A stretch of DNA of 61,634 nucleotides from an uncultured Alphaproteobacteria bacterium (GTDB taxonomy: Bacteria; Pseudomonadota; Alphaproteobacteria; RF32; CAG-239), in NCBI GenBank assembly GCA_910580155.1, contig CAJTWX010000001.1, positions 1 through 61,634 of the forward strand, read 5' to 3'. A program made the position numbers and the translations under genes. How positions within the stretch are numbered: the first letter of the stretch is position 1; the number at the start of each line of letters is the position of its first letter. The notes beneath the pieces were generated by a model that made no database searches, was not told the DNA's origin, and saw only the letters and a program-made list of their open reading frames with translations. This document shows, one piece after another, positions 36,529-57,700 of the stretch.

Positions 36529-36550
36529 CACAAGAGTAAAGAAGCAAATA

Positions 36551-41177: not shown

Positions 41178-44012
41178 ATGAAACGACAAATAATCAACTA
41201 TCCGGAATTTTTAAAAGCCATAGATGGTCTTTTTTCAGCAAACACGGTTCATAGCATAAAAGAGTATCAAGACGAGGCATCTGCGTCCAAACAGCGCCGC
41301 AAGCAAAAGATTGCCGCCGTTTCAACCCGCCTGCGCGAGATGAAAGCAGAGATTGAGAAATATAAAATCAAAATCAGAAAAGCCGCAGAAAAAGATAATA
41401 AAAAAGAATACGGTCTCCGTCTTAATCAGCTTATCCGCGCCAAAACCGAATTGCTGAAAGTTTATAAAGAAGAGAAAAACCTCACGCCGTTTTCAGAGCT
41501 TTCCGAAGAGGCAAAAGTATACGCTTGTACTCAGAGCCTCTTGAAAAAATATCTGCTTGCCGCATTTGTCAAATCCTCCCCTGAAGCGTATCATATAAAT
41601 GAGGACGGTACTGTCACGCTGAATGTGGATGAATTTTGCAATTCCATCTTATACCAACAGGCAAGCCACATCAAAGACTATGTATCCTCTTATATTCAGC
41701 ATTATCCGCACCGCGTTGTCGGCGGGCGTTACTTTACCGGTCTGTATAAGGAACTGCCGGAGTTTGATGATGTTCTTGCTGTTGCAGACGAATACTTTGA
41801 CGTGTTGAATCAAAACAATGAAAAATTAGAAGAAAACCTGCAAAAGAGCCGTCAAGGTATAGAAGTTATTGAGTCCTATCCCGAATATCAGGCGCAAGCC
41901 GTTCGCTTGCTCACAAAAGAAGCGTTGCAATATGAGGGAACGGAAATGGAGCATTGCGTAGCCACATATTCTGACAAAGTAAAAAACGGCACCACGCAAA
42001 TTTATTCGCTTCGTGATAATGGGGATGAATATACTGAGTTTGTGCCGCACGCCACCATTGAGTTTCAAGATGGGAAAATCAAACAAATCAAAGGCTTTAA
42101 AGACAGCCTTGTTGATATGGCTTACATTAAAGCCACGCGCTGTCTGGTCAAAACGTTGCTTCATTTAAACACCGATGAAGAAATACTCAATTACCCTGAT
42201 ATTCCGTTATCAGAAAAAAACAATATCGGCTTTTTAAAAGATACTAAAGGGACACTGCGCGATATTTTTGGCGTGTTTCAAAAAGATACGGAAATTGTTT
42301 TTGAAGCCGTCAGAGTTAAGGCAAACCGGATAAAATGTCTGAACTTCAGCTGTATAAAATTCAAAACAGTTACCGTCATCGGCGCGATAATGCCCAAAAC
42401 AATACAGCATTTGGCTACAGCCGGTAATTTGCAAAAAATAAACCTTATTTATCAAAATGGGCAGGCCGAACAGACGCTGAATTTATCAAAACTGTCTGGC
42501 GAAGAGGTTTGCATAGAATTAAAAAAAGATGCTCAGGCAAGAAAAATAGTGCTCCCCTCAAATATCCGCATATTAACGATAACTGGAAATATGCCGGATT
42601 TGGCAGTAATTGAAGGCACAACCTTACAAGAGCTTACATTGAACGGAAACTTTAATAGCCTGACCAAAATTCCGCCCGTCAGCAAAGAAATATGCTTCGG
42701 AGGAACATTTAACGGCCGTGTGCTTGAAACAAAAAGCCTGCATCAGTTACAAAAATTAACATTAAAGGGTTCTTGTGATTTATTTTCACAGTTGAATTTG
42801 CCCAGTCTGGAAAAACTGGAATTAAGTGAAGGGACTTTTGAGAATATAGAAAAATTTGATTTTGCCTCATATCCTTCAATATCTAATGTAAATTTTTTTG
42901 AAAGCACGTTCCCGAAATTAAAGGAAATCAAAACCTCAGGAAACATTAAAGAATTTACAGGCTCACATTCTGCTTATCCTCTGTTGGAGCGCATAGACTT
43001 ATCTCAATCTCCGCGCAAAACTTTTGGGGTTTTAGAGCAGGATGCATTAAATGAAATATATTTCCTAATAACTGCAGGCGAAAGAGCGGGCGAAAAGGTT
43101 AGCACCGCATTTCCGGCATTAGGCGGTTATCTAATGAATTTTACAACCCTTTCGGCACTAAAAGAATTAAAATTTCGGGAAGATATCGAAAAAATAAATT
43201 TAACCGGAATCAAATTTGGAGCGATAAATCCGATTGATTTTTCCAGCTATAAAAATTTAGAAGAGCTGAGTTTGCAATTTACCAGTTTTTCCGATAATAC
43301 CATCATCGATTTATCTCAATGCACCAGCTTAAACAAACTGTCACTTGATTTGGAACAGGTGGTTAATCCTCCTGAAAATATCGAAAAGCTGGATATCCGG
43401 CGTGGAAAAGATACGCCTTCTCCAAAAACGCTAGATCTCAGGCAATATCCGCACCTGAAATCATTAAAATTAGATTTTCTGCCCGAAGATAATAAACCGC
43501 TGTGCGTTGAAGAGCTGAATATATTCTTAATGGACGCGTCCAACGCCCACGTTAAAGAACTGGACTTTTCGCACATACGCCATTTAAAAGTTGCCACCTC
43601 TATGCAGCTTAAACTGCCACAATTGGAGCGTCTGGTTATGTCCGAAAGTTTTTCAAGCCTGCATCTGTTTAATCTCTCTCCGCATTTAACCGAGATAGAC
43701 TTGTCCCGAACCAAAGGGGAGGTAGAAATTATAGAAATAGATTGGGGTGAAGAAGTAATGAGCAGCACCGGAAAAATTTACTTGAAATCCGAGCAATTTA
43801 ATGTTATTAAAAAGATAAAAATCGGCAAAGAAACAGATTTGCAGTTGCCGCCTTGTACGGCAAATCTGCCGATAACCATAGAATTGCCGGCAGACGCAAC
43901 GGATAAAGAACAAGAATTAAAAACGAAATATCCGCACTTGCAAATTGCCCGCAAACAGCTGCCGGCACTGCCGCCTCGCCAATTGCCATACATACGGGCA
44001 GGGCGTTTATAG
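41178..44012 (+). CDS. Large protein: coiled-coil N-terminus, PcfJ-like domain, long LRR-like repeat region
   Basis: 944 aa. EGTEMEHCVATYSDKVKNGTTQIYSLRDNG...HATIEFQDGKIKQIKGFKDS resembles the PcfJ-like domain signature. About 550 aa of irregular Leu-rich repeats follow (LQELTLNGNFNSLTKIP, LEKLELSEGTFENIEKFDF, and others). Confidence 0.75.
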   Translation: MKRQIINYPEFLKAIDGLFSANTVHSIKEYQDEASASKQRRKQKIAAVSTRLREMKAEIEKYKIKIRKAAEKDNKKEYGLRLNQLIRAKTELLKVYKEEKNLTPFSELSEEAKVYACTQSLLKKYLLAAFVKSSPEAYHINEDGTVTLNVDEFCNSILYQQASHIKDYVSSYIQHYPHRVVGGRYFTGLYKELPEFDDVLAVADEYFDVLNQNNEKLEENLQKSRQGIEVIESYPEYQAQAVRLLTKEALQYEGTEMEHCVATYSDKVKNGTTQIYSLRDNGDEYTEFVPHATIEFQDGKIKQIKGFKDSLVDMAYIKATRCLVKTLLHLNTDEEILNYPDIPLSEKNNIGFLKDTKGTLRDIFGVFQKDTEIVFEAVRVKANRIKCLNFSCIKFKTVTVIGAIMPKTIQHLATAGNLQKINLIYQNGQAEQTLNLSKLSGEEVCIELKKDAQARKIVLPSNIRILTITGNMPDLAVIEGTTLQELTLNGNFNSLTKIPPVSKEICFGGTFNGRVLETKSLHQLQKLTLKGSCDLFSQLNLPSLEKLELSEGTFENIEKFDFASYPSISNVNFFESTFPKLKEIKTSGNIKEFTGSHSAYPLLERIDLSQSPRKTFGVLEQDALNEIYFLITAGERAGEKVSTAFPALGGYLMNFTTLSALKELKFREDIEKINLTGIKFGAINPIDFSSYKNLEELSLQFTSFSDNTIIDLSQCTSLNKLSLDLEQVVNPPENIEKLDIRRGKDTPSPKTLDLRQYPHLKSLKLDFLPEDNKPLCVEELNIFLMDASNAHVKELDFSHIRHLKVATSMQLKLPQLERLVMSESFSSLHLFNLSPHLTEIDLSRTKGEVEIIEIDWGEEVMSSTGKIYLKSEQFNVIKKIKIGKETDLQLPPCTANLPITIELPADATDKEQELKTKYPHLQIARKQLPALPPRQLPYIRAGRL

Positions 44013-44054
44013 CGGCACCTGCCGCTGGCAGTCATTGCGAGGAGCGATAGCGAC
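44008..44054. repeat. REP-like dispersed element (long form)
   Basis: cctgccgctggcagtcattgcgaggagcgatagcgacgcggcaatct. The 34-nt core is the exact reverse complement of 36333-36366. Confidence 0.8.
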
Positions 44055-44120
44055 GCGGCAATCTGTTAGAAAGTTTAAAAATACTATTATCCGAATTATT
44101 AACTCTCAAAAATAAGCATT

Positions 44121-45355: not shown

Positions 45356-47665
45356 TTAATTTAAATGTAAAATATTTTTGCCGGTAATTGAAACAGCCGC
45401 CGTCCGTCCCAGATTGTCAACAGCACGGATAATCGCTTTCCCGACGGGTAAAGCAATTTCAAGGTTCTGATACCGCCCGCTTTTTCCGGCAAAGACATCG
45501 TTAACAAACCAGAGCGTTTCCGCCGCGTCTGCATCAAGCTCTGCCGAAAGTGTCAGCTTTTGCCCGTAACTGTGTGCAATTAAAACGCTGCCGTCTGCCG
45601 GCGATTTAATCACCGGCGCTTTTCCCGATAGTGCCGTCGATACTTCTGCACAGTTTTCCGCAAATTCGGGCGGCCGGTTCAACCGGATTCCCGCCTGCTC
45701 GTAAATCCGGTAAATTTCCGAATCCCAAAATTGGTAAGCTTTCAACTCGGTTAGGGGCGGCATATGCCGGCAGGCACGTTTGCCACTTTTTTTGTCAATG
45801 GGAATTTTGCGTGTGATGTTCTTATAAGGCGTTTTCGTGATGTTCGGAATAAAATAAGTGCTGCCTGTCTTTTCGCAGTCCTCATTTGCCAGTTCACCAG
45901 TGGCAAGGCATATATCCGCCTTCGTTAGTTCCAATGTTTCCAAAGCTGGAGTGTCTTGCCTGACCAAGCCGTCCGCTGCCATCTGCCGGATAAGTGCAAA
46001 CATCAGCGGAGCCGCCGTCTCGCGTCCCACAAGCGCATTGTTCGGCGTGTTGTCAAAATTGCCAAGCCAGATGACAAACACATAATCGCCTGCAATTCCA
46101 GCACTCCACGCATCACGAAAGCCGAAAGACGTTCCCGTCTTCCACGCCACATTATAACCATCGTGGCTGACAAGATAGGGCAGGGCGTGCCGGTCAACCG
46201 GCGGATTAGTCTTAAGCATCTCTAAGGTTAAAAAAGCACTTTCCGGCATAAGCAGCGGCACGGCCAGACTTTCTGCTTCTCCTGCAAAATAGCGCAGCCG
46301 CCGAAACCTTCCCTGATTGCCGAGCATTGCATAAAGCTCTGCCAAATTTTGCATTGTCACTTCCGCCCCGCCAAGCGCCAACGCCAGACCATAATGCCTT
46401 GCCGGTTTAAGCTTCGGAATGCCGGCTTTTTGCAATAAATTATAAAAGCTGTCCGCCGAAAGTTTTTGCAACAACTCAACCGCCGGAATGTTACGGCTTT
46501 GCACTAAGGCCTCAGTAGCGTTAATCAGCCCTTTAAAGTCGTGGTCAAAGTTCTCAGGCGTATATAAGCCATAGTTTTCCGGCACATCGCGCACAAGCGA
46601 CAGCGGGTGAATAAGCCCTTGTTCCAGCGCCAGCGCATAAATAAACGGTTTTAAAGCTGACCCCGGAGAACGCAGGGAAGTCAAACCGTCAACTTGTCCG
46701 GAAATTTCTTTGTCAAAAAAATCCGCCGAACCAACTTCGGCAATAACCTCCATTGTTTGCTTGTTGACAATGATTGCTGCAGCATTGCGTACCCCGAGGA
46801 CGCGCTGTTTATCAATATAAGAACGCAGCGCTTGTTCCAGTTTGTGCTGCCAAACGCCATCAATTGTAGTACGGATGTTGCCGCTTGTCGTCTGCCGCTT
46901 AACACGCTGCACGGTGTGCATTGCTGTTTTCGGCAGATGTTTTTCAAACAACACCGGCAGGTCAAGCGTCGTTTCATTGCCGTATGCTGTGCTCCAGAGT
47001 GTCTTCAGCCGCTGCACGGCTGCCGCAATCCGCTGCTGCCCGCCGGTTTTAAGCGGATGCCTTTTTTCAGGATTTTGAGGGATAACCGCAAGAGCTGCCG
47101 CCTGCGGCAGATTAAGTTTGTCAGCTTCGGTGTTAAAATAAATGAGTGCCGCCGCACCAATGCCTTCAATATTTCCGCCCATCGGGCACAGATTGTAGTA
47201 TGCCTCCAAAATTTCTTCTTTGCTGTAGTGTCGTTCCAGCTGTAATGCTCGCAAAATCTGCTGCATTTTACCCCAAAGGGAAGATGTATCAAGCCGCCAC
47301 CTGAGTCGAGCCACCTGCATCGTAAGGGTAGAAGCCCCTTGTCTGCGCCCGCCCGCAATCATTGCCGCTGCTGCCCGCGCAAGGCTCGGGATATCCACGC
47401 CGAAATGGCTGAAAAACCGTTTATCTTCATAGGTTAAAAGCGCTTTTTTCGTGTGTTCGTTAATCTTTTTGTACGGCACAAACAGACGATACTTTTCATC
47501 TAACGAAAGTGATAAATTGAGCAGATTGCCCTCACGGTCAAATACCGCGCGCGAAAAGGTATAAGGTTCCAGCAAATCCGGTTTCGGGCAAAACAGAAAG
47601 CCGAGAACAGCAAGGAATATACTGCCCGCCGTTATCGCCCGCAGCCGCAATGCCCGCCGCTTCAT
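45356..47665 (-). CDS. pbpC: Penicillin-binding protein 1C
   Basis: Transglycosylase motifs (EDKRFFSHFGVD, RQGASTLTMQ), transpeptidase SxxK (SPGSALKPF), and a C-terminal PBP1C-type extension. The ATG at 47665 shares one nucleotide with the TGA of the upstream alpha-2-macroglobulin gene. Confidence 0.85.
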   Translation of the reverse strand: MKRRALRLRAITAGSIFLAVLGFLFCPKPDLLEPYTFSRAVFDREGNLLNLSLSLDEKYRLFVPYKKINEHTKKALLTYEDKRFFSHFGVDIPSLARAAAAMIAGGRRQGASTLTMQVARLRWRLDTSSLWGKMQQILRALQLERHYSKEEILEAYYNLCPMGGNIEGIGAAALIYFNTEADKLNLPQAAALAVIPQNPEKRHPLKTGGQQRIAAAVQRLKTLWSTAYGNETTLDLPVLFEKHLPKTAMHTVQRVKRQTTSGNIRTTIDGVWQHKLEQALRSYIDKQRVLGVRNAAAIIVNKQTMEVIAEVGSADFFDKEISGQVDGLTSLRSPGSALKPFIYALALEQGLIHPLSLVRDVPENYGLYTPENFDHDFKGLINATEALVQSRNIPAVELLQKLSADSFYNLLQKAGIPKLKPARHYGLALALGGAEVTMQNLAELYAMLGNQGRFRRLRYFAGEAESLAVPLLMPESAFLTLEMLKTNPPVDRHALPYLVSHDGYNVAWKTGTSFGFRDAWSAGIAGDYVFVIWLGNFDNTPNNALVGRETAAPLMFALIRQMAADGLVRQDTPALETLELTKADICLATGELANEDCEKTGSTYFIPNITKTPYKNITRKIPIDKKSGKRACRHMPPLTELKAYQFWDSEIYRIYEQAGIRLNRPPEFAENCAEVSTALSGKAPVIKSPADGSVLIAHSYGQKLTLSAELDADAAETLWFVNDVFAGKSGRYQNLEIALPVGKAIIRAVDNLGRTAAVSITGKNILHLN

Positions 47666-50600
47666 CACTCAATCACCAGCCGGTCGGGCAGGGTATTGGC
47701 TGAAATTTTCGGGTCATACATCGCGTTGGCATATGCCGCCGGAACCACAAAATCGCCTTGTGCCGTCACCCTGACTTTGTAAGTAACAGTAATCGTATCG
47801 CGCATTCCCATATCAAAATACGCCAGCATCCGGTCTTCGCGGGCCTCGCTATGGGAAAGATAGTCATTGCTTTCAATCGACCCGCGGATAATCTCAACTC
47901 CGCCTGCAAGCAAGTCTGTTAAAGCCACATTGCTGATATATTCTCTGCTGGTGTTCTTGACCGTTATTTCCACCGTCACCTCATCGCCAAGTTCAAGCGT
48001 ATTCAGAGTTTTGCCTTTCGGAGCTTTAAGCTTTTTTGCCATCTGCAAGCCGTTTGCAACAGCTTTTTCCGGCAGATTAACCGCAAAGCCTTCCTGCTCG
48101 ACAGTATAGAAAAACGGTTTGTCCGCAGCAAGTTTTAGCTCCATAACCGCCGGCGTCACTTCTGCCGCGCCGTAAAGCCCGTTTTGCTCTGCGGCTGCAC
48201 CGTCAAACCGGATATCGTCCGCCGCTTCGTTTTGCCCGATTTCGCTTAAAGCCAAAATGGCAAACGCCGAAGAAATGGTGTTGAAATCTTGTTTTTCCAG
48301 CGGTTGCAAAAGCTTTTCAACATCCTGCACGCTGTTAAGGATATTCTGCCCGCCGAAAACTTTGCTTGCAATATAAATATATCGCGCATTAGAAAGGTCC
48401 GACCACCCGAATTTATAGCGTTTAATCAGCGGTAGCGCCTTTTTCGGATTGTGTAAGAGCTGATAGCCGGCAGCAATGTACACGCCGTTAAGTGTAGATT
48501 TCCATTTGTCGCCGCAATTCCGCTGCAGCACATTCTCAAGGTTTAAGAGGTAGTTTGTCGTCACCTCGCCGGCCTCGGTTAAAACATATGCCGCATATGC
48601 CGCAAGCGTATCGTTTTCATCATCAGGCTCTTCTGCAGCTACGGTTTTGGCAAAGCGGATTGCCCCGTCATACACGCCTTTCGGCACATTAAAGCCATAT
48701 TTTTTCGCTGCGGTTAAAAACTCCAGCGCATAAACCGACACAAATTTATCGCTCTGCAAAGAAGTTCCGCCCCACATAGCAAATCCGCCGTCTGCCTTTT
48801 GCCGGTCAATAAGTTTTGCAAGCACGTCATCGTATGTGTCATACACAAATTTGCTGTTAATATACGCCGCCGCATCTTCAGCCGGCAGCTTAAACAGCAG
48901 CACCATCGCCGGAAAGATTTTGCTGACCGATTGTTCGGTGCAATAGTGCGGGTATTTCCCGAGATATTGCAGCAGCCCTTTAGCCAATATCAGCGGAGAA
49001 GCCGAGGCATAGACCTTTTGCGACCGCTGGTAAGGGTAAAACTCTTTAACAAAGTTTTTAAGCGTAACCTGCCGCGCGGCTTTACCGGCTGTCACATCGG
49101 TTACAAACGGCACGGCCGGACGAATCCCCGTTTCCAGCGCCATAGAGGTGTGCTGTTCCGGAGAATCAACCGCCTCCGCCGTAAAGGTAATCGTCTGTGC
49201 GCCAAGTTTGTTAAGCGCCTTAAGCTTAAAAGAAACAGAACTTTCACCATTTTCATCAATCTCTAAAATACGACTGTTTTCACCCAAAATTTCCAGTCCA
49301 TCCGTCGCCAAAACCGACAGCCGCACTTTATAAGCCATGCCGCTTCCCTTAATAAGGTTGCTGACTGCCGCGCCGGCTTCAAACACATCATCGGGCGCAG
49401 CATAAAGAGGACCGGTCAGTGTCAGCGCAAAGTCGCCGCGCACCAATACGCTTTTTTCCACTGCTCCGAATTTGCCGGCATTCATCCCCGCCGCCATAAT
49501 TTTCATCTCGCCGTTAAATGTATCGGGAACGGTATAGCTGAAAAACTGTTCTTCAGGGCGTGATTTTAGCAGTCCGCTCCAAAATGCTGCCGGCTTGTTT
49601 TGTTTGCGGGCAAACGGGTTCAGCATTTTCAAAAGCATCACGTCATCTTCGGCATCAGCACCGCCGCCTGCCGCGGCAAGCTGTAAAGCCAGTTTCGTAT
49701 CTGGCAGTACCAAATCGAGAATTTGCCGTGTCGCCACCTGTAGCGCCTTTTTCGGGATAAAGAACTCAAGTGGCGAGGGGAGCTTATAGTCCGAAACCTG
49801 CAAAATCCCCGTATTTACACCCCATAAAAAGATGTCTGCGTCTTCAGGAGTTTTATAGCCGATTTTAAGCTCTTCACCGGGTTTGACGCTTTCTGGAACG
49901 GAAAGTTCAATCGGCAGGTTATAGGCCGCAACGCTGATGTTAAACGGTGCAATCCCATAGCTCAACGGCTTGTCAAAAATCTCTTCGGCAGTAATGTCGC
50001 GGGCAATTGCCACATTCAAATAGGCATTGCCGGCAACTCCGTCTGGTAACTGAATTTCCTGCACACTGGCCTTACTGTTGGTCTTAAACCATTTATAAGC
50101 ATACACCTTGTCCTGCTCAATGCTTAACAGCCCCATCCCTTTAAACGGCGCACGAATTTGTACCCTGATGGTCTCGCCGTTAGTATATTCTTTTTTATCA
50201 AGGGACAGCGAAAGGTTTTGCAGTTTGTCTTCCTTAAAATTTTCGTTGGCAGCTCCGGCAACGCTGTAATTCAGGCTTAGCAGTTCTTTGCCGCCTTTTT
50301 CCTCAACTGCGAGCACATAGTCGCCGGCTGTTGCCGTATCAAGCACAACATCATATCCTTCCCGCGTAATGTTAAAGCTTTCGGTCTTAACCGGAACTTT
50401 CCTGACCGTGCGTTGGTAGCCGTATGTCCCGTTATCAAGCAGCGTTAAAACACGGGTTTCGTTGTTGGTATAAACTTTAAGAACCAAATCTTCCGCCGCA
50501 ATCTGCTGCAAATTGCTGTCAATCGCAATAAGGTGGATTTTATGCGCACTGTTTTGTGCCAAAAAAGAAAGGGCATTGTTTTGCGTATCGGCTTTATACC

Positions 50601-53178
50601 CCAATAAATAGCTGTTTGGCGAGAAAAGGCCGGAAATCATTTGCTCGACTCCTCTGCCGCCCTCGCGTTCCAGTCCGGTCATAACTGCGGTTAAACGATA
50701 AGTGCCGCGATAGTGCCGGTTAAGGTTAATGTCAAACTGTGCCACGCCGTCTTTGCCCGTTTGTTGAGGAGTAAGCTCTTCCTCGATAGTCAGCCGTTGC
50801 CGGTCAGAAACAGCCGACGGGTCATAAAACTGATACCCCATATATTCGCCAAACTGAAAACGTGCGGGAACCATCCGGTAATATCCTTTAACGCCGTGTC
50901 CGTCTGCCGCCGTCCCGTAAAGGTTTGCCAAATCAGCTTTAAGCACAATATTGTTTGCCGTATTCCATCCTTTGCCGCCCCGTGGCTCAAAGGCAAGGCT
51001 GAGTTTCATCGTATCTGGCAGAAATTCCTCAACGTCAAAATCAATACTGTCGACATATTCTTCATAGTTTCCGGTGTTTTTATAAAGAGTGAGCGAATAT
51101 CTGCCCAGCGGTGCCGCAGCAGGCAGCGTATAAGATATCATATCAAGTCCGCCCGCAGCGGAAACAAAACTCTTCTGGCTCACAAGTTTCCAGTCAGCTG
51201 TCCGGATTTTGGCAATCAAAGGCAACCCCTCAGCCGGCTTCAGGTTTTCGAGCCGTGTCATAATGCCGAAATGGGCAGTTTCATTCGGTCGGTAAATGCC
51301 GCGGTCAGTGAATAAAAATGCCTTGAGCTTATCTTGTTTGCTGCTGGCATATTCCCCGCCGACATTATAGCGCGAATAGTCCAAAACCCTGTCGTTTTTC
51401 CATACCGGAATAAAACTCATATCTCCGTTAAGGGAAATTTTATAAGCCACGGCGCTTTTGTCATTTTTAAATTCTGCAAACGAGGGCAGGGCGGCCATTC
51501 CCTGATTATCCGTCACCGCCGACAAAACTGGCTGCCCGTTCACGCCGAGCACCTCAACCTTAGCTCCCTCCGCCGCTTCGCCTTTGGAGATGTTTGCAAC
51601 AAACAGATTATGGCTGCCGTCAGCATTGTCTTTGACAATCACGCCCAAATCTGTCACCATAATCAGTCGTGTGTCCGCCGGCGTCACTGTGTTGTTGCCG
51701 TCTTTTCCTTGCAGCGTAATCAAAAATACGCCGCTTTTGCCGTCCAGATAAGGCGTTAAATCAAGCGAAGAATACTTAAGTTCGCTCACGTCGTCGTTGT
51801 TAATCATCAGTTCTTTTTCAAAAATAGTGGCAATATTTTCTTCGCTAAAAGAATAGTTTTTGAAATAAGGAGTTGCAAAATCCCCGCCGGTCTGTGTCAC
51901 CAGATGGTTTAAATCATCCTCTGCTATTTTGGCAATTTTAACCTGCAGGGCAGGGACACCACGGGAAGAAAACGCCACGCTTCTTTGCGTTTGCAGCGGA
52001 ATAACCGCGCCGTCAAAACTGATGTTTGCTTCGCGCGGATAGTCTGCCGAGCGGATAACCTGCCGTACCGAAGCCAGCGGATACCCTTCTTTAGAGGTCA
52101 CACCCTCTTTAAGCAGTACCCGCAAAGCCGCATCCCGTTTGGGCAGATGGTATCTGAAAAAGCGGGTGTTCAGCCCTTCTTGTGCCGGCAGCGCCTCAAC
52201 ATCAAGCTTAACCCAGCGGGCTTTTTCCGTGTTGCTGTCCCTGAAAACACCGTAGCAGTTTTCTTTACAATAGGCAACCGTCACCCTGTCTTTCAGACTT
52301 TCATCATCAAGAGCAGCCGAAAAGGCAACGCCCACAACCTGCTCCGGCTCATTGTCCTCATTGCGGATAAGGCTTGCGGAAATGTCTTTAACCTTAAAAA
52401 AGGTACTGATACTGGGAATTGTTACTCTGGCAAGGGCAACCGGTTTGTCGTCATTGGCAATCGGCGTATTGTTATAAATATTTTTTACTTTATTTACCGA
52501 AATTATTGCAAAGTCGTCATTAACGCCGAGTTTAACCGGTTCAGAGATAACGTGCAGCATCGTGCCGCCGTTTTTAAGCGTATAGGTAAAGCCGTATTCC
52601 TTGCCGTGGATAGTTTTAATCTCTACCCCGTCTTTAATGCTCTCTTCCTTAACCGGATAGGTAAACTCAAACGATGCCGTAACCGATTTTTTACCGACAT
52701 CACGCGGATCTTCATAAAAATCTTTTGCCGTTCTGCGGGCTTCAAATTCTGGCGCACGGAATTTAAATGTCCGCTCTTTAACTTTTACCCCCTCTGCAAA
52801 AATATCCTCAGGCATCGTCACTTCATATTCCTGAGCCGGAATCCAGTTTTCCTGCGGTTTAAAAACCAACTGCGCGCCGGCAGAAAAACGCCACGAACCG
52901 GCGGTTTCGGGAACCATCTTAAAACCAACCAAACCTTTTTTGCCATATGCATATGGTGCGGCAACATTATGGTCAAAAAAAACATCCACACTGTCTGCCA
53001 CAGGCTTTCCGTCCACCGTATAATAAGCTCTGGGAGCAGAAATCATACTGATTTTTGCCTCGGTTATTTTCGTAGATTTAAAATACTCGTTATTGAAATA
53101 GGTCTGATAAGCCCATACCCCGCCGCCAATAACAATGGCTGCCGCCGCAATAACCGCCGCCCAAGTTGATTTTTTCAT
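47665..53178 (-). CDS. yfhM: Bacterial alpha-2-macroglobulin (YfhM-like), membrane-anchored
   Basis: About 1840 aa with an N-terminal hydrophobic anchor. The thioester motif CTEQ lies at nt 48931-48942 (YPHYCTEQSV). Pairing with pbpC is classical. The start may be 53190 or, better for RBS spacing, 53178. Confidence 0.85.
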   Translation of the reverse strand: MKKSTWAAVIAAAAIVIGGGVWAYQTYFNNEYFKSTKITEAKISMISAPRAYYTVDGKPVADSVDVFFDHNVAAPYAYGKKGLVGFKMVPETAGSWRFSAGAQLVFKPQENWIPAQEYEVTMPEDIFAEGVKVKERTFKFRAPEFEARRTAKDFYEDPRDVGKKSVTASFEFTYPVKEESIKDGVEIKTIHGKEYGFTYTLKNGGTMLHVISEPVKLGVNDDFAIISVNKVKNIYNNTPIANDDKPVALARVTIPSISTFFKVKDISASLIRNEDNEPEQVVGVAFSAALDDESLKDRVTVAYCKENCYGVFRDSNTEKARWVKLDVEALPAQEGLNTRFFRYHLPKRDAALRVLLKEGVTSKEGYPLASVRQVIRSADYPREANISFDGAVIPLQTQRSVAFSSRGVPALQVKIAKIAEDDLNHLVTQTGGDFATPYFKNYSFSEENIATIFEKELMINNDDVSELKYSSLDLTPYLDGKSGVFLITLQGKDGNNTVTPADTRLIMVTDLGVIVKDNADGSHNLFVANISKGEAAEGAKVEVLGVNGQPVLSAVTDNQGMAALPSFAEFKNDKSAVAYKISLNGDMSFIPVWKNDRVLDYSRYNVGGEYASSKQDKLKAFLFTDRGIYRPNETAHFGIMTRLENLKPAEGLPLIAKIRTADWKLVSQKSFVSAAGGLDMISYTLPAAAPLGRYSLTLYKNTGNYEEYVDSIDFDVEEFLPDTMKLSLAFEPRGGKGWNTANNIVLKADLANLYGTAADGHGVKGYYRMVPARFQFGEYMGYQFYDPSAVSDRQRLTIEEELTPQQTGKDGVAQFDINLNRHYRGTYRLTAVMTGLEREGGRGVEQMISGLFSPNSYLLGYKADTQNNALSFLAQNSAHKIHLIAIDSNLQQIAAEDLVLKVYTNNETRVLTLLDNGTYGYQRTVRKVPVKTESFNITREGYDVVLDTATAGDYVLAVEEKGGKELLSLNYSVAGAANENFKEDKLQNLSLSLDKKEYTNGETIRVQIRAPFKGMGLLSIEQDKVYAYKWFKTNSKASVQEIQLPDGVAGNAYLNVAIARDITAEEIFDKPLSYGIAPFNISVAAYNLPIELSVPESVKPGEELKIGYKTPEDADIFLWGVNTGILQVSDYKLPSPLEFFIPKKALQVATRQILDLVLPDTKLALQLAAAGGGADAEDDVMLLKMLNPFARKQNKPAAFWSGLLKSRPEEQFFSYTVPDTFNGEMKIMAAGMNAGKFGAVEKSVLVRGDFALTLTGPLYAAPDDVFEAGAAVSNLIKGSGMAYKVRLSVLATDGLEILGENSRILEIDENGESSVSFKLKALNKLGAQTITFTAEAVDSPEQHTSMALETGIRPAVPFVTDVTAGKAARQVTLKNFVKEFYPYQRSQKVYASASPLILAKGLLQYLGKYPHYCTEQSVSKIFPAMVLLFKLPAEDAAAYINSKFVYDTYDDVLAKLIDRQKADGGFAMWGGTSLQSDKFVSVYALEFLTAAKKYGFNVPKGVYDGAIRFAKTVAAEEPDDENDTLAAYAAYVLTEAGEVTTNYLLNLENVLQRNCGDKWKSTLNGVYIAAGYQLLHNPKKALPLIKRYKFGWSDLSNARYIYIASKVFGGQNILNSVQDVEKLLQPLEKQDFNTISSAFAILALSEIGQNEAADDIRFDGAAAEQNGLYGAAEVTPAVMELKLAADKPFFYTVEQEGFAVNLPEKAVANGLQMAKKLKAPKGKTLNTLELGDEVTVEITVKNTSREYISNVALTDLLAGGVEIIRGSIESNDYLSHSEAREDRMLAYFDMGMRDTITVTYKVRVTAQGDFVVPAAYANAMYDPKISANTLPDRLVIE

Positions 53179-53362
53179 TTCTGCCCCCATATCTGAAAAT
53201 TAAGATTCTTTTAAACAAAGTGCATTTTTTTGCTTAAACAGTCAATTTTATATCCATACTGTAAACAATTTTTTTATTGTAAAACTTTTGAGATAGCTGT
53301 TGACAAAGTTTAAAATTTCAGGCACTATATCTCTATATCGAAGTCCTTAAAAGGAGGGGAAT

Positions 53363-54061
53363 ATGGCAGAGGTTAAGGTATGTCTGGTAACGGGTGCGGC
53401 GAGTTTAATCGGGCAGCATATCGTTGCCGAATTGGTCGCGGCAAAACATAAGGTAATCGCGTTAGGTGACCCGAACGATACGTTTATGCCCGATGTTTTA
53501 ACCAAACGTCGGGTTAAAATCAATACAGCTCTGCCGGTCACCGCTGCCTCATTTAAAAAGCACGATGTCCAGTTTTGTTTTGGCGATATCAGTGATATAT
53601 CGTTTCTCGCCTCGGTTTTTTCAGGCGCAGTGCAAAATGAAATCAAGCTCGAATATGTGTTCCACCTTGCTGCAAACAAAGCGATTCAGAAAAGCGCACC
53701 TGCCGCATATCATCCGGAGTTTATCGCCACGGCAAACGTTTTGGATGTCGTACGCGCCTATTGGCAGGAGCATAAGGAAACCTTTAAGGGCTTTTTCTAT
53801 GCTGCCGAAAACAATGCCAAATCCGGCAAGGTAGAAACAATGCTCAATACAATACACGAAAAATCCGGCTTTCCCGCAGAGGTGTTCAAAGACGAGAATG
53901 TTCCGGTGGGGGCAGGGTATAAAGGGCGCACGTCGCTTGCCTCGCTCTATCGCGTCTTAACGCCGTTTACAATATCCAACAAATGGGAAAGCACTGACAC
54001 CGAAGACGGTTATATCAACCGTATCACCCGCGCTGTTACCCGCCTGATTGAAACATCTTAA
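53363..54061 (+). CDS. Short NAD(P)-binding Rossmann-fold protein (epimerase/SDR-like)
   Basis: AGGAGG RBS and the N-terminal VCLVTGAASLIGQHIV glycine-rich dinucleotide-binding motif. At 232 aa it is shorter than typical epimerases. Confidence 0.6.
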   Translation: MAEVKVCLVTGAASLIGQHIVAELVAAKHKVIALGDPNDTFMPDVLTKRRVKINTALPVTAASFKKHDVQFCFGDISDISFLASVFSGAVQNEIKLEYVFHLAANKAIQKSAPAAYHPEFIATANVLDVVRAYWQEHKETFKGFFYAAENNAKSGKVETMLNTIHEKSGFPAEVFKDENVPVGAGYKGRTSLASLYRVLTPFTISNKWESTDTEDGYINRITRAVTRLIETS

Positions 54062-54114
54062 AAGTAGTTTCAAATTTATAGCACATCATTGTGCCCCCCT
54101 CTCTCTTCTTGCGA

Positions 54115-54147
54115 GTCATTGCGAGGAACGAAGTGACGTGGCAATCT
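54115..54147. repeat. REP-like dispersed element
   Basis: gtcattgcgaggaacgaagtgacgtggcaatct. Confidence 0.8.
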
Positions 54148-54194
54148 CAGCCCACAAGAGCATTCTCACCATAACCCGCGCATTGCGGTTCGGA

Positions 54195-55271
54195 CTATAA
54201 TCCGTTTCCGGCACGCTTGAAAGCCATAACTGCAGACATTTCCATCTCCGCCTTTTGTGCGCGAATAAGTTTGGCAATGTTTGAAACAGCCGTTTTTGCC
54301 ATATCAACTTCGCTGCGGCAGGGGGCATAAATCCCGTTTTCGTAACGATATTTCATATTTTGGTGAATCTTGTGAATTTGCATATTCAAAAGCATTATCT
54401 CTTCTTTGTTCAGCGGACGGTTTTCTTCCGCGGCAATTACCTCGCACACATTGTCAATATGCGGGTGTCGCGTGTCATACAGCAACTCATTATTGCGGTT
54501 GACCACCATCAAATCAACATTATCAGCATTTGCCTTTTGAAAAGTGCTGATTTTATTAATCATCTCGGGCAACATCCGTACCACGCGGCTGAAATATTCA
54601 TTCGAAACTAACCGCGGATAAAGCTCGTTGTTTTGAAAAATAATCTTGTCATAAAGCGTTGCGCTGCGATAGACGCTGCTCAAATACGCCACATCAGGAT
54701 TAACCGCCATATATACCGCGCAGGGCTTATAGCCGTGTTCAATCGCTTTTGCAGCATTGTCGGCAAACTCCACGCCGGCTCCCATAGACCCGACAGAGAG
54801 CACCGAACGCTGTCCGGACTGCAACGACAAATCTAAAATCCGCCGCACATAGTCAATCGTTACGCCCGCAAACTTTTCGCATTCGTCAATATGGCCGCCG
54901 CGCAAATGGTTAAATAAATTTGGAAAGAGGTTGCGGTGCTCGTCTTTGTCGATAATATTAAACGGCAAACAGTCCTCATCTTGGGCAAAACGCTCAATCA
55001 ACTTTTGCGTCATCACTGACTTTCCTGCACCGGGGTAGCCCCAATACACAACAAACCGCCGTCTTTTGGGCGGAACGCAATCATTGTTTTTTTCAATAAA
55101 TTTAGCAATGGCTCTGTCATAGTTCTTTTTTGCGCCGGTTTGCTCTTGTGCCAAAATTTCTTGCACTTCTTCTTCGCTGAAAGGCGTGTGTTCGCCACAG
55201 TTAAGATTATCTAAAAACAAAAGCAGGTCATCAGTTTTTTCAAGCAATTGTTGTTTGATTTCGTTTTTCAT
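54195..55271 (-). CDS. Zeta-toxin-family P-loop kinase with an N-terminal extension
   Basis: 358 aa. Walker A WGYPGAGKS, IIDKDEHRN, and a pattern consistent with the zeta toxin/AvrRxo1-type kinase fold. Its ATG shares one nucleotide with the stop of the upstream HAD gene (TAATG). Confidence 0.6.
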   Translation of the reverse strand: MKNEIKQQLLEKTDDLLLFLDNLNCGEHTPFSEEEVQEILAQEQTGAKKNYDRAIAKFIEKNNDCVPPKRRRFVVYWGYPGAGKSVMTQKLIERFAQDEDCLPFNIIDKDEHRNLFPNLFNHLRGGHIDECEKFAGVTIDYVRRILDLSLQSGQRSVLSVGSMGAGVEFADNAAKAIEHGYKPCAVYMAVNPDVAYLSSVYRSATLYDKIIFQNNELYPRLVSNEYFSRVVRMLPEMINKISTFQKANADNVDLMVVNRNNELLYDTRHPHIDNVCEVIAAEENRPLNKEEIMLLNMQIHKIHQNMKYRYENGIYAPCRSEVDMAKTAVSNIAKLIRAQKAEMEMSAVMAFKRAGNGL

Positions 55272-55729
55272 TATTTATAATCCAATTCCTTAAGTTTACG
55301 GATGGTTTCTTCCGCCGAGGTGTGCAAAATGCCGATACCGCCCATTTCTTCCCAACGTTGAATGTTCGGTTCGCGGTCATCAATCAAAATATCTTTCGGT
55401 TTGCCGAAGTTTTGCTTGTCTTTGGAAAGGCAGCAGATAACGCCGTCTTCCTTACCATAGTGTTTTTTCATCCACAGCCGCTTTTCTTTTTCCGCCTTGT
55501 CATAGCCGTATGCCGGCAGTCCGGTCAAAATCTGAAAGCCGTGCTTGTTTAAGTGCTGCACCAGTTTGTCCGCATCATTAAGTTTCGGCAGGTTCAGCCA
55601 ATAGTTTTCTGTGTCCAGCACAATCTGCCACAGTTCTTCACGTGGCATCAGATAAGGCAAAACCCCGTGGTTGCGTTCAAATTCTTTATCAAAATCGACG
55701 AGCACGCCGTCCATATCGCAAAATATCAT
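55271..55729 (-). CDS. HAD-superfamily 5'(3')-deoxyribonucleotidase (NT5C-like)
   Basis: Start refined to 55729 (GGAGG RBS). HAD motif I FCDMDGVLVDF, and ILIDDR near the C-terminus. Size and pattern match NT5C-family nucleotidases. Confidence 0.7.
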   Translation of the reverse strand: MIFCDMDGVLVDFDKEFERNHGVLPYLMPREELWQIVLDTENYWLNLPKLNDADKLVQHLNKHGFQILTGLPAYGYDKAEKEKRLWMKKHYGKEDGVICCLSKDKQNFGKPKDILIDDREPNIQRWEEMGGIGILHTSAEETIRKLKELDYK

Positions 55730-55828
55730 AAAACCTCCATAATTTGAATACAACGCCATCATAGAAGAAGAAAAAACGCTTTTAAATGAAAATATTATTA
55801 CATAATGTTACAGCGTCTCTTTTCTCCG

Positions 55829-55847
55829 GTCATTGCAAGGAGAATCT
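55829..55847. repeat. Truncated REP-like element
   Basis: gtcattgcaaggagaatct, in which the two conserved ends are joined without the internal segment. Confidence 0.6.
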
Positions 55848-56659
55848 CACATTCTTTCCCTTTGCCCCAACCAGCCCAATACTACCGGATGCGCCTTATC
55901 GCCGAAAAACAATGCATTGTGGCTCAACTTGGGAATAACAGTAAAAGTTTTATCAGAAGATGGGGAAAGCTCATATAAATCTTTCCCGTGCTTGGGGGTA
56001 ATCAGCGTATCTTCCGCGCCGTGAATAATCAGAAGTGGCCCTTTATATGTTTTAACAAACCGGTAAGACGGCAGTTCGTATTTAAGCGCCGCAGTCGCCA
56101 GCGGAATGTTTTGTTCGCCGGCAACTTTTTTCAAAGAATAAAACGGTGCCGCCAACACCAAACCGCGGGCAGGGCGCTCTGCTGCCGCCGCCGAAGCAGC
56201 AGCTGTACCCATTGAATAACCATAAACAATAATATCATCGTGTCCGAGCGTTTTATGTAAAAAATCAAATGCCGCCTTGGCATCGCCGTAAAGTGATTCT
56301 TGTGTAAATTTGCCAGCCGTATTGCCAAACCCGCGGTATTCGCTCATATACACACTGTAGCCGCTGTTAAGATAAGGCTTCAAAGAAGGCGCAAACAAAG
56401 CAATCTGTCCCGAATTGCCGTGAAAAAAGAGCAAAGCCGGCTTGTCCGCATCGCCTTTGGCATACCATCCCATAATCGTGAGACCGTCCGCAGCCTTAAA
56501 CGGCTTTTCAACAAACTGCGGCAACCCTTTGTCGGCAGGGGAAATATACCCTTTGTCCGGAAACAGGTATAAATGCTGCTGTCCGCAATATAACACAATC
56601 GGATAAATCAGTGCCAAACCGGCCAAAGTCCCTAAAAATTCCCGCCAATATTTCATCAT
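55847..56659 (-). CDS. Alpha/beta hydrolase
   Basis: N-terminal TM/signal segment, nucleophile elbow GYSMGTA, HGAEDTLI and a C-terminal His. Confidence 0.75.
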   Translation of the reverse strand: MMKYWREFLGTLAGLALIYPIVLYCGQQHLYLFPDKGYISPADKGLPQFVEKPFKAADGLTIMGWYAKGDADKPALLFFHGNSGQIALFAPSLKPYLNSGYSVYMSEYRGFGNTAGKFTQESLYGDAKAAFDFLHKTLGHDDIIVYGYSMGTAAASAAAAERPARGLVLAAPFYSLKKVAGEQNIPLATAALKYELPSYRFVKTYKGPLLIIHGAEDTLITPKHGKDLYELSPSSDKTFTVIPKLSHNALFFGDKAHPVVLGWLGQRERM

Positions 56660-56758
56660 TGCTCCTTTAAAAACTATCAGTTAATATAACCTTCACCACA
56701 ATAATGTCAAACAAAAATCCCCGCCGCAACTGCAGCAGGGATTTTTTTAGAGGAAAAG

Positions 56759-57310
56759 CTACTTGCGGGCAAATTTGCCGGTACGTTGCTTCTTTTGGCG
56801 TTTGGAACGCATCTCTCCTTCAAACGCCGGCAGCCACGGCACAAGCTCATTGTCAAACTTCATATTGACGCGCCAGCCGTGCTTGTCTTGCGGGTTGGGT
56901 TCACCGTTATGGCGTTCTTCGCGTTTGGCCATAAATTCGGCGATAGAAACGTAATCACTCATATCCGAGCACATACCGACGAGCGTTTTGCGGATATAAG
57001 TCATTCTTGGCATCAGTGACTGTGTCAGGAGGGCATTGACCGGCCCGTGAAATGTCACATTCGCACCATCGCCTTTTTTGTCTTCCACCAGATACACATA
57101 GCCGCGCACGGTAGTAAAATGTATCACATTGGGAAAAACCTTAACGGCAACAAAGTTTTCGGGATGTCCCGTTTCTCTGAGAAATGCCGGCTTTCCATTG
57201 GCATCATATTCCACGTCCCAGCGCTTGCCGTCACCTTTGCTGATTTTATACAGCAACACCTTCGTCGTTTGTGAAATCTCAAACTTGAAAAAACTTTCAT
57301 TTTTTTTCAT
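56759..57310 (-). CDS. Hypothetical protein (183 aa) with a basic C-terminal tail
   Basis: Clean ORF. No family recognised. Confidence 0.6.
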   Translation of the reverse strand: MKKNESFFKFEISQTTKVLLYKISKGDGKRWDVEYDANGKPAFLRETGHPENFVAVKVFPNVIHFTTVRGYVYLVEDKKGDGANVTFHGPVNALLTQSLMPRMTYIRKTLVGMCSDMSDYVSIAEFMAKREERHNGEPNPQDKHGWRVNMKFDNELVPWLPAFEGEMRSKRQKKQRTGKFARK

Positions 57311-57700
57311 AACATAACAATTTTAATGATAATACAGGATTTTCTGCCAGTATAAAGAAAATAATTTAAGAATCAAGTACTATTTTTTTAATTTTGTCTA
57401 TTGATATCTGCTGAAAATGAGATTATAAACAGAACAAAACCGATTATTATGCTTTTAAAGCTACAATTATAAATGAATATTTTTCCGCCGCAGCTTTTGC
57501 ATTTCGCGCCGGAATCATAAATACCGCCTTACAGGCCGTACGAAAATGTAAAAAAAACATAAAGAAATAGCACTTAAAAACTAATTTTTTCATTTTGGCC
57601 CTCTTCCGCTGTGAAGCGTAAGGGGACTTTCTGTTAACACAATCAGTTTTCCTGCTGGTTCAGCTCCTGACCACCATACCGTTTAAGTTATGGTTGGCGT

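Follow-up and report, generated by a model that had tools for sequence, protein, structure and literature searches.

Organization of the locus

The window, i.e. the whole stretch of 61,634 nucleotides analysed here, comes from an uncultured alphaproteobacterium and is uniform in GC content. Its minus strand carries a gene for a 152-residue HAD phosphatase of the NT5C type (55271..55729) and a gene for a 358-residue P-loop kinase with the zeta/PezT fold (54195..55271), each identified as an open reading frame and assigned using Pfam, AF2 modelling and Foldseek. The HAD reading frame spans 55271..55762 on the minus strand. The ATG at 55729 (MIFCDMDGVLVDF...), which yields the 152-residue form, is preferred over the upstream ATG at 55762 because it is preceded, 4 nt ahead, by a GGAGG Shine-Dalgarno sequence (55734..55738, minus strand). 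This start is also supported by the homologues, all of which begin with the N-terminal motif MI[FY]CD[ML]DG. Upstream of the HAD gene, TTTAAA-17 nt-TATGAT (55758..55786, minus strand) is a weak match to the consensus of a sigma-70-like promoter.

The TAA of the HAD gene (55273-55271) and the ATG of the kinase gene (55271-55269) have one base in common within a TAATG overlap (55269..55273, minus strand). Open reading frames and sequence thus confirm the two genes of the original prediction, with their lengths, their strand, the GYPGAGKS motif of the kinase and this junction. The tight coupling that it proposed is real in that stop and start overlap, an arrangement consistent with translational coupling. 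Of 28 related loci with unfused genes, 12 show an overlap at the junction and the other 16 a spacer of 1-27 nt, as judged from automatically picked starts. As also predicted, the list of open reading frames contains no separate small frame between or beside the two genes that would correspond to an epsilon-type antitoxin. No riboswitch or other RNA was matched in Rfam at E ≤1, either over the whole window or over 53900-57500.

The kinase gene is convergent with an SDR gene, and an alpha/beta-hydrolase gene lies on the HAD side. A copy of a genome-wide palindromic intergenic repeat (GTCATTGCGAGGA...GACGTGGCAATC; 54115..54147, plus strand) separates the convergent kinase and SDR genes, and half a copy of this repeat (55829..55847, plus strand) is found between the alpha/beta-hydrolase and HAD genes. 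These REP-like elements, whose full form of about 34 nt reads GTCATTGCGAGGA-N-GACGYGGCAATC, had been described as flanking the pair on both sides. The repeats themselves are real, with 8 copies of GTCATTGCRAGGA in the window compared to 0.23 expected, but they are generic. They are spread over unrelated intergenic regions across the window, and at 55829 only half of the element is present, so the pair is not specifically bracketed by them. No direct or inverted repeats bracket it either, and we rejected the idea that the REP-like elements mark the ends of a mobile cassette.

The zeta-type kinase

The kinase scores 50.8 bits against Pfam Zeta_toxin (PF06414), above the curated cut-off of 22.3. 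Its AF2 model (pLDDT 89) is best matched by Foldseek to zeta (1gvn_B, 6e-12), 3q8x and PezT (2p5t), with TMt values of 0.75-0.81, and a profile of the kinase family retrieves PezT (9.6e-7) and zeta (6.8e-6) from the PDB. Profile searches therefore place the protein in the Zeta_toxin family and not in a housekeeping nucleoside or nucleotide kinase family, in agreement with the original assignment. Like the UDP-GlcNAc 3′-kinases of the epsilon/zeta and PezAT systems, with which it has Pfam family and fold in common, it contains a conserved Walker A motif (G78-YPGAGK84-S85), the catalytic D110 and the lid arginines R202 and R220; its catalytic residues further include D108 and R113. The homology to these proteins extends through their C-terminal 'EKELNRK / EENRPL' region. 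No substitution of K84, D110, R202 or R220 occurs among 42 family members, nor in an alignment of 19 sequences that includes canonical zeta-like proteins. D110 is equivalent to zeta D67, and R202/R220 to zeta Arg158/Arg171. The roles of the substrate-deprotonating Asp and of Arg158/Arg171, as well as the definition of the GTXR motif, have been described previously (PMC6362051).

The kinase differs from epsilon/zeta and PezAT toxins in the substrate pocket. The UDP-GlcNAc-binding GTXR site is occupied by G161-S162-M163-G164, and the GTXR Arg is missing in all five representatives of the kinase family, whereas the aligned canonical relatives read EGTLR. Moreover, zeta Glu116 is replaced by Val. 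The loss of the GTXR motif makes canonical zeta chemistry on UNAG unlikely. Judged by its residues, the kinase looks active, with the zeta catalytic core kept and a substrate pocket that appears to have diverged from the UDP-GlcNAc type. It also differs from zeta and PezT by extra N-terminal helices (approximately residues 1-47) and by a longer conserved C-terminal helical region, which runs beyond the zeta-aligned part (about residue 306). A cis-acting epsilon-like domain at the N-terminus was considered and set aside, as a profile of residues 1-66 found no epsilon or PezA structure, nor anything else relevant, in the PDB, although this is a weak negative. The two proteins of the pair are both acidic (pI 6.2 and 5.6), so a small-molecule substrate is likelier than a nucleic acid.

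The second-best group of structural matches to the kinase, much weaker (TM ~0.45), is that of AvrRxo1, an NAD 3′-kinase of the zeta superfamily whose substrate is thus a non-UNAG nucleotide (PMC5491322, PMC5087710). AvrRxo1 differs from the present kinase in being a secreted effector, and its partner Arc1 is a binding antitoxin.

A zeta-toxin fold with a full catalytic core is also what would be expected if the kinase made a toxic phosphorylated nucleotide or nucleotide-sugar that the co-translated HAD phosphatase detoxified catalytically. An imbalance between the two, upon stress or phage infection, would then free the toxicity and lead to growth arrest or abortive infection. We consider such a toxin with an enzymatic antidote unlikely on the whole of the evidence, which includes the missing GTXR motif. 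However, a zeta-family member devoid of GTXR, Rv0366c, is still growth-inhibitory, with a bacteriostatic effect (PMC6362051).

The HAD phosphatase

The HAD protein is matched by Pfam NT5C (PF06941) with 35.3 bits, for a curated cut-off of 24.8. All four HAD motifs can be recognized: D5-x-D7 (motif I), T69 (II), K105 (III) and D117-D118 (IV). Across 43 homologues, D7, T69, K105, D117 and D118 do not vary, and D5 hardly does. With its catalytic residues intact, the enzyme looks active. The closest structures to its AF2 model (pLDDT 94.6) are 1q92 and 4mwo, both of human mitochondrial deoxyribonucleotidase (mdN), and 3bwv, with TMq values of 0.63-0.65; HisB-N and GmhB-type folds rank below them in Foldseek. 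The domain assignments of the original prediction thus hold for both proteins, each of which exceeds its Pfam cut-off and is modelled with the expected fold, zeta/PezT for the kinase and mdN for the phosphatase. The HAD protein is shorter than mdN (152 residues compared to about 195), with a cap that is predicted from secondary structure to be reduced to two helices.

The protein also matches PHROG 2643, annotated '5'-3' deoxyribonucleotidase' (E 4e-35). It has 286 phage homologues, and identity to phage proteins of about 150 residues reaches 46%; the homologue of phage phiM5 also carries a dATP/dGTP diphosphohydrolase domain as part of a fusion. The HAD phosphatase thus belongs to a nucleotide-metabolism subfamily, and a dNMP phosphatase activity is predicted from the PHROG annotation. 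NT5C enzymes (cdN/mdN) also hydrolyse 3′-phosphates, a property that fits the 3′-OH chemistry of zeta and AvrRxo1 and would suit an antidote. The human and phage NT5C enzymes are not linked to a kinase, whereas the HAD protein described here is obligately linked to one. The mammalian deoxynucleoside kinases that oppose NT5C enzymes, TK2 and dCK, come from another kinase family and are not linked to them.

The pairing of HAD phosphatase and P-loop kinase recalls PNKP, in T4 Pnkp as well as in the mammalian enzyme, whose HAD-then-kinase order is that of the natural fusions described below. In a PNKP-like pair, the kinase would act on 5′-OH ends and the HAD protein on 3′-phosphates of RNA or DNA. 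The D-x-D-x-x-R motif following the P-loop does resemble that of PNK, and the Clostridium thermocellum polynucleotide kinase 4gp6 is among the Foldseek matches of the kinase. However, this match is weak (E 3e-3) compared to those of zeta and PezT, and the zeta homology extends through the C-terminal region of zeta. The HAD protein is closest to NT5C/mdN and not to the cap-less PNKP/HisB-type phosphatases, so that both subfamilies differ from those of PNKP. Both proteins are acidic, and ligase, Hen1 and other RNA-repair partners are absent among the neighbouring genes. End healing is thus very improbable.

Linkage of the phosphatase and the kinase

The survey of adjacency in other genomes bore out the proposed association: at each of the approximately 50 kinase loci whose upstream DNA is readable, the HAD gene lies directly upstream of the kinase gene, overlapping it or no more than 27 nt away, or is fused to it. 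This holds for 23/23 species-level genome loci with upstream DNA, for the 18 metagenome loci (18/18) whose HAD protein is at least 54% identical, and for loci L029, L037, L038 and L041-L043. In three independent assemblies, the two proteins form a single HAD-kinase fusion of 504 residues (P0101). An exhaustive HMM search of 1.84 billion proteins yielded only five 50%-identity representatives of the full-length kinase family, all five HAD-linked. In this search the full-length family extends down to 320 bits, and canonical zeta toxins start at 61 bits. A repeat word-indexed search with the kinase profile returned the same 102 proteins; given this and the score gap, distant kinase relatives with other partners do not emerge. 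Chance adjacency can be ruled out, since the HAD protein is upstream or fused at every readable locus. Adjacency throughout the family, together with the natural fusions, gives good support for a functional link between the two proteins.

The linkage is asymmetric. The kinase never occurs without the HAD protein at loci with readable upstream DNA, whereas some genomes carry HAD orthologues, with every invariant residue kept, and no kinase within 6 kb. At least two lineages with such solo HAD genes are nested within kinase-bearing lineages. The neighbours of these genes lack a Walker A motif and are not picked up by the kinase HMM even when filters are switched off, which excludes a divergent kinase beside them. 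Because the solo proteins retain every invariant residue and are under purifying selection, the HAD protein has a role of its own, independent of the kinase, and is not merely its reverser.

Several of these features are those of a toxin and its antidote. The putative antidote gene comes first and the putative toxin gene second, with a stop/start overlap; in epsilon/zeta and PezAT the partner gene is likewise upstream and tightly coupled. The HAD protein can occur alone, but the kinase always comes with it. However, the partner in epsilon/zeta and PezAT is a binding antitoxin, and here it is an enzyme. The purifying selection on solo HAD genes also argues against an antidote. As for the fused form, we take the known linked-polypeptide toxin-antitoxin system to be EzeT of Escherichia coli, a zeta toxin that carries an antitoxin domain in cis. 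EzeT is thus an earlier case of a neutralising partner joined to the N-terminus of a zeta-type kinase, in a layout like that of P0101, but its N-terminal domain is an epsilon-like binding inhibitor, unlike the HAD domain, which by its residues appears catalytically intact. [quoted passage not shown]

In the collection of papers searched, none combines a zeta toxin with NT5C. The terms zeta toxin and 'nucleotidase' co-occur once only, in a description of a jumbo-phage genome. The pair of HAD phosphatase and zeta-type kinase is real and previously undescribed.

Inheritance and genomic context

The pair is confined to one clade of gut and rumen Alphaproteobacteria, in which the synteny blocks around it contain MetRS, RecA, AccBC and an SDR. 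The pairwise identities of both proteins follow those of the adjacent MetRS (r = 0.86 for the kinase and 0.91 for the HAD protein). They also follow each other, with r = 0.98 among MetRS-linked loci and 0.87 over all 22 loci. The pair evolves more slowly than the adjacent MetRS and flavin reductases and much faster than RecA and AccC. Mean identity is 74% for the HAD protein and 65% for the kinase.

No relatives of the kinase were found in IMG/VR viral contigs or in phage genomes, and its sole match in the plasmid collection is a Veillonella zeta toxin with 27% identity; on these grounds we rejected the idea that the kinase came from a phage, a plasmid or a virus. Neither protein has a significant match among the PADLOC-DB 2.0 defence models, and membership in a defence system was rejected as well. 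The best score of the kinase is to PDC-S73 (E 0.0016, 15 bits, in the C-terminal region), and the HAD protein has none. The pair thus looks like a vertically inherited chromosomal couple and not like a mobile toxin-antitoxin or defence module, unlike epsilon/zeta and PezAT, which are plasmid-borne or patchily distributed.

These data weigh against the toxin-antidote or abortive-infection role originally proposed, and against a role in addiction. The pair is restricted to one clade and co-diverges with its flanking genes in stable housekeeping neighbourhoods (MetRS, RecA and AccBC), and the kinase lacks mobile or defence relatives. Furthermore, no DNA-binding autoregulator is present with the pair, and the upstream partner is better conserved than the putative toxin, the reverse of what is usual for antitoxins. 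DarT/DarG systems, in which an enzymatic antidote reverses the ADP-ribosylation carried out by the toxin, are mobile or defence-associated. They have in common with the present pair the concept of an upstream or linked enzyme undoing a covalent modification, but the chemistry differs and toxicity is putative here.

The genomic context also bears on a sequential pathway, in which the two enzymes would each modify a different position on the same molecule, in the manner of HldE/GmhB in heptose synthesis. Either the kinase would phosphorylate one hydroxyl before the HAD protein takes off a different phosphate, or the HAD protein would yield a nucleoside that the kinase re-phosphorylates elsewhere. 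In both cases a particular phosphorylated nucleotide or sugar-nucleotide would result, perhaps destined for the synthesis of envelope glycans. Fused genes and a fixed stoichiometry typify consecutive steps, and vertical inheritance at an ordinary evolutionary rate would be in keeping with a pathway. In 11 of the clustered loci the convergent gene downstream codes for a short SDR, of nucleotide-sugar epimerase/dehydratase type, and in seven of these loci glycosyltransferases follow. However, these genes are not obligatory partners, because they are on the opposite strand and the MetRS- and AccBC-linked synteny groups lack them. No further pathway genes travel with the pair, and the solo HAD proteins speak against a pathway-specific intermediate. 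Two consecutive steps are thus a doubtful explanation.

Possible function of the pair

We tentatively favour an obligate kinase/phosphatase couple acting on a single nucleotide-like metabolite, an explanation that is quite possible but far from secure as regards the shared substrate, the directions of the reactions and the physiological role. The pair forms a chromosomal bicistron that looks vertically inherited, and a single fused gene in some relatives. Its kinase, a member of the zeta/PezT/AvrRxo1 superfamily with a pocket unlike the UDP-GlcNAc type, would phosphorylate a small molecule at the expense of ATP, and its HAD protein would be an NT5C-type 5′(3′)-nucleotidase that is translated first, with the ratio of the two proteins fixed by translational coupling. 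The kinase may phosphorylate a hydroxyl of the metabolite, and the nucleotidase may strip that phosphate, or another one, from the same molecule. Because the nucleotidase removes phosphate, the phosphorylated species would be held low and controlled, in a self-limited substrate cycle. The couple would then serve the physiology of the host cell and not mobile addiction or abortive infection.

Several arguments can be raised against this substrate cycle in host physiology. The HAD protein has a role independent of the kinase, and growth inhibition by Rv0366c shows that a zeta-family member without GTXR may still be a toxin. Futile ATP use needs regulation, yet no regulatory element or domain was found for the pair, and no Rfam match. 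In addition, the asymmetry of the linkage, the HAD-first order and the retained zeta core are also expected of a toxin-antidote pair. If that improbable alternative were nevertheless correct, the kinase would be the first zeta-family toxin neutralised by catalysis and not by binding, with the phosphatase steadily removing a toxic phosphorylated nucleotide, and loss or inhibition of the phosphatase, as might occur upon phage infection, would cause growth arrest.

To our knowledge, every zeta-family kinase with a described function is a toxin or a secreted effector; it poisons pools of nucleotide-sugars or NAD and is controlled by a binding antitoxin. What is new here is zeta catalytic machinery that is obligately linked, and sometimes fused, to a nucleotidase and inherited as an ordinary chromosomal gene. 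If the physiological couple is correct, a zeta-type kinase would have been domesticated for a physiological role on a phosphorylated nucleotide metabolite. If the enzymatic antidote is correct, the module would represent the first zeta toxin of this kind, fixed in the chromosome of gut Alphaproteobacteria. Either outcome would broaden the known functions of the zeta superfamily and would point to an uncharacterised metabolite in these abundant uncultured gut bacteria.

The gene pair and its surroundings in the window

The ORF listing and the sequence place two ORFs on the minus strand within 54195-55762. The upstream HAD ORF spans 55271..55762. Because all aligned HAD homologues (43/43) have MI[FY]CD[ML]DG as their N-terminal start, and GGAGG lies 4 nt ahead of the ATG at 55729, translation was assigned to this codon, giving the 152-aa HAD phosphatase of the original prediction. 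Its TAA (55273-55271) and the kinase ATG (55271-55269) have one base in common, the overlap that had been described, and the 358-aa kinase ORF ends at 54195. Pfam agrees with the two domains proposed earlier, both above the cut-offs: the kinase is Zeta_toxin (PF06414, 50.8 bits vs 22.3) and the HAD is NT5C (PF06941, 35.3 bits vs 24.8). NCBIfam matches to PezT and HAD-IA are both sub-threshold. The ORF listing of the window contains no small epsilon-like antitoxin candidate adjoining the pair, as already noted from the sequence. The window has no tRNAs, no repeats bracket the pair, and the GC content is even.

REP-like elements had been predicted on both sides of the pair. The 13-nt core GTCATTGCRAGGA was counted 8 times in the window, where 0.23 copies would be expected, and the full repeat of ~34 nt (GTCATTGCGAGGA, ~10 variable nt, GACGYGGCAATC) is short, intergenic and palindromic. 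Copies lie at 6469-6578, 36353-36530, 44031-44065, 54115-54147 and 55829-55847, sometimes in tandem clusters (three copies near 6469-6578). The elements exist but are not specific flanks: they are spread over intergenic DNA throughout the window, and at 55829 only half an element is present, so that we rejected them as cassette boundaries. The repeat is a REP-like genome-wide element of the source organism.

Linkage of the HAD and the kinase

The adjacency proved recurrent when surveyed as the original prediction had advised. The HAD gene lies directly upstream of the kinase in 23/23 MAG loci (those of 26 having DNA upstream of the kinase) and in L029, L037, L038 and L041-L043, loci which cover divergent representatives. 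The arrangement is also present in 18/18 of the metagenome loci with a HAD of at least 54% identity. In each of the 28 non-fused loci evaluated, the HAD stop and the kinase start either overlap or lie no more than 27 nt apart. One sublineage encodes HAD and kinase as a single 504-aa protein (P0101), found on two independent metagenome contigs and at the MAG locus L026, which is clipped by the contig end; the junction matches plain loss of the HAD stop codon.

The kinase was never seen without the HAD. Solo HAD orthologues (53-62% identity, all invariant residues kept) occur in three contexts (L030; L031-33; L034-36) with no kinase within 6 kb, a local criterion that leaves room for an unlinked kinase elsewhere in these genomes. 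They branch among kinase-linked HADs in an NJ tree without bootstrap, which suggests that these lineages lost the kinase and retained the HAD. Distant environmental HADs (29-39% identity) never accompany the kinase.

Searches among 5.8 billion proteins gave 102 kinase relatives (90% clusters), and a profile search gave the same 102. Gut or rumen metagenomes are the source of virtually all of them, the few named ones being 'Alphaproteobacteria bacterium'. When 1.84 billion 50%-identity representatives were searched exhaustively with an HMM, only 5 full-length family representatives emerged, and scores fell from 320 bits in the family to 61 bits, the level of ordinary zeta toxins. The clade is small and sharply bounded. 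The kinase is carried by 26 MAGs (species-level genomes), all of them Alphaproteobacteria living in association with a host; the samples were human, mouse, buffalo, yak and rumen.

The zeta-type kinase

The predicted kinase structure (pLDDT 89) matches zeta (1gvn_B, 3q8x) and PezT (2p5t) with E ~1e-11 and TMt 0.75-0.81, followed by AvrRxo1 and gonococcal zeta_1. Residue equivalences were taken from the family profile aligned to PezT and zeta, and from a 19-sequence alignment including canonical zeta-like proteins. The P-loop residues P80, G81, G83 and K84 are conserved, as are D110 (zeta D67, the substrate-deprotonating Asp), R202 (zeta R158) and R220 (zeta R171). Profile, fold and catalytic residues all place the protein in the Zeta_toxin superfamily. 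However, at the position of GTXR, the UNAG-binding signature of the zeta family (PMC6362051), it carries G161-S-M-G164, and Val replaces zeta Glu116. The GTXR-site Arg is missing in 5/5 family representatives, whereas canonical relatives in the same alignment have EGTLR. Since the catalytic residues are kept and the acceptor-site residues changed, the kinase looks active, with an acceptor unlikely to be UDP-GlcNAc in its canonical binding mode. Two hallmarks that define canonical epsilon/zeta-PezAT systems are missing: the GTXR motif, and an antitoxin that works by binding.

A toxin neutralised by an enzymatic antidote, the idea of the original prediction, would accord with the catalytic core still present and with a GTXR-less zeta homologue that remains bacteriostatic (PMC6362051). 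The gene order and the one-sided co-occurrence of kinase and HAD are compatible with it. So is the fused form, whose precedent we take to be EzeT, in which a zeta toxin carries its antitoxin as a domain acting in cis. In that precedent, toxin and antitoxin of a type II TA system are joined in one polypeptide (PMC4826407). We nevertheless consider an antidote role unlikely.

With pI values of 6.2 and 5.6, the two proteins are acidic, which favours a small-molecule substrate rather than nucleic acid. The combination of a HAD with a P-loop kinase domain would also fit a PNKP-like end-healing enzyme, but the enzyme subfamilies, the charge of the proteins and the genomic context do not, making such a function highly improbable. 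Polynucleotide kinase 4gp6 matches the kinase model at E 3e-3 only.

L038, a divergent relative, encodes a second, far shorter Zeta_toxin/AAA_33-type P-loop protein (216 aa; 10062-10712, plus strand) ~1 kb downstream of the pair, with a flavin reductase gene in between.

The HAD phosphatase

The HAD model is very confident (pLDDT 94.6). Its closest structures are human mitochondrial 5'(3')-deoxyribonucleotidase (1q92, 4mwo), compared with which its helical cap is shorter, and the staphylococcal deoxyribonucleotidase-like 3bwv. Motifs I-IV (D5/D7, T69, K105, D117/D118) are invariant or almost so across the 43 homologues. By profile, motifs and fold the protein belongs to the NT5C family. It also matches PHROG 2643 '5'-3' deoxyribonucleotidase' (4e-35), and 286 phage genomes encode homologues of ~150 aa, with a top identity of 46% in Agrobacterium phage Atu_ph07.

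In Sinorhizobium phage phiM5 (L040, 3419-4471), ARV77536.1, annotated '5' nucleotidase', is a fusion protein: a dATP/dGTP diphosphohydrolase domain (PF18909, 84.8 bits) forms its N-terminal part and is followed by this same short NT5C-type HAD domain. This ties the HAD subfamily to deoxynucleotide-pool metabolism; the phage protein could convert dNTPs to nucleosides in two steps.

Genomic neighbourhood and inheritance

The neighbours of the pair fall into a few synteny groups, each common to sub-clades. The window and L001-L003 share the order alpha/beta-hydrolase, HAD, kinase and convergent short SDR, followed in the window and L003 by an alpha-2-macroglobulin gene. Seven loci have HAD, kinase, SDR, repeat lipoprotein and glycosyltransferases. 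In nine, MetRS (sometimes with one extra gene between) precedes HAD and kinase, and RecA is near some. L038 has AccB, AccC, HAD and kinase; L037 covers the AccC end only.

The SDR (53363-54061, plus strand) is unusually short (232 aa), with weak epimerase/GDP-mannose-dehydratase matches. It keeps its position in 11 of the clustered loci, namely the window, nine genome loci and L029; in 7 of them it lies ahead of a repeat lipoprotein and GT2/GT1 glycosyltransferases. The SDR could reflect synteny that has been preserved or be a loosely associated functional partner. These frequent nucleotide-sugar-type neighbours, together with the HAD-kinase fusion, would suit two enzymes acting sequentially at different positions of one molecule. 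Such neighbours are not universal and lie on the opposite strand, and we regard a sequential pathway as rather improbable.

Other genes nearby were also recorded. The gene for the 1841-aa bacterial alpha-2-macroglobulin (45356-53190, minus strand; MG2, bMG3, bMG5, bait region, A2M and bMG10 domains) overlaps with its stop codon the start of the gene for a PBP1C-type penicillin-binding protein (Transgly, Transpeptidase, BiPBP_C); together they make up the A2M/Pbp1C gene pair, which is known. A 183-aa ORF (56759-57310, minus strand) without Pfam or NCBIfam family is conserved, at 60-85% identity, ahead of the alpha/beta-hydrolase gene in just two of the closest relatives, L002 and L003. ORFs of 521 aa (24933-26498, minus strand), 974 aa (26647-29571, plus strand) and 878 aa (29641-32277, plus strand) have no Pfam match at E <=1e-5, and the sole match of a 944-aa ORF (41178-44012) is a PcfJ-like domain. 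At L037 (9593-11128), a eukaryotic-type Ser/Thr protein kinase (Pkinase) gene adjoins a PP2C phosphatase gene, a few kb away from the HAD and kinase genes; the two pairs are unrelated.

When loci are compared in pairs, the identities of both proteins correlate with that of the adjacent MetRS (r = 0.86 for the kinase, 0.91 for the HAD) and with one another (r = 0.98 at MetRS-linked loci, 0.87 across the full set of 22). Mean identity is 72% for the kinase and 78% for the HAD vs 60% for MetRS, so the pair evolves more slowly than MetRS; RecA and AccC evolve much more slowly than the pair. The evolutionary rate of the pair is ordinary. No kinase relatives were found in IMG/VR, phage genomes or plasmids, barring one 27%-identical canonical zeta toxin on a plasmid. 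PADLOC gave no match for the pair, and Rfam no element. Taken together, the synteny groups, co-divergence with MetRS, ordinary rate and lack of phage, plasmid and PADLOC matches mark the pair as a lineage-specific operon passed on vertically, not as a mobile TA or defence island.

Significance of the pair

As read from their genes, a zeta-fold kinase and an NT5C-type nucleotidase, both predicted enzymes with intact catalytic residues, are obligately co-encoded and co-translated, and in some cases fused. Most economically, they would act on one nucleotide-like metabolite, the HAD phosphatase limiting or reversing the kinase product. Vertical inheritance, housekeeping neighbourhoods, the ordinary rate, the lack of mobility or defence signals and the persistence of the HAD without the kinase lead us to favour a physiological, self-limited kinase/phosphatase couple, to which we give slightly less than an even chance. 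A toxin-antidote role would be more exciting but is less likely, and the taxonomic range of the pair is narrow. No description of a zeta-kinase/NT5C pairing was found in full-text literature searches. The kinases form a distinct HAD-coupled clade of zeta-like kinases, and their linkage to the HAD is robust, previously undescribed and experimentally tractable.
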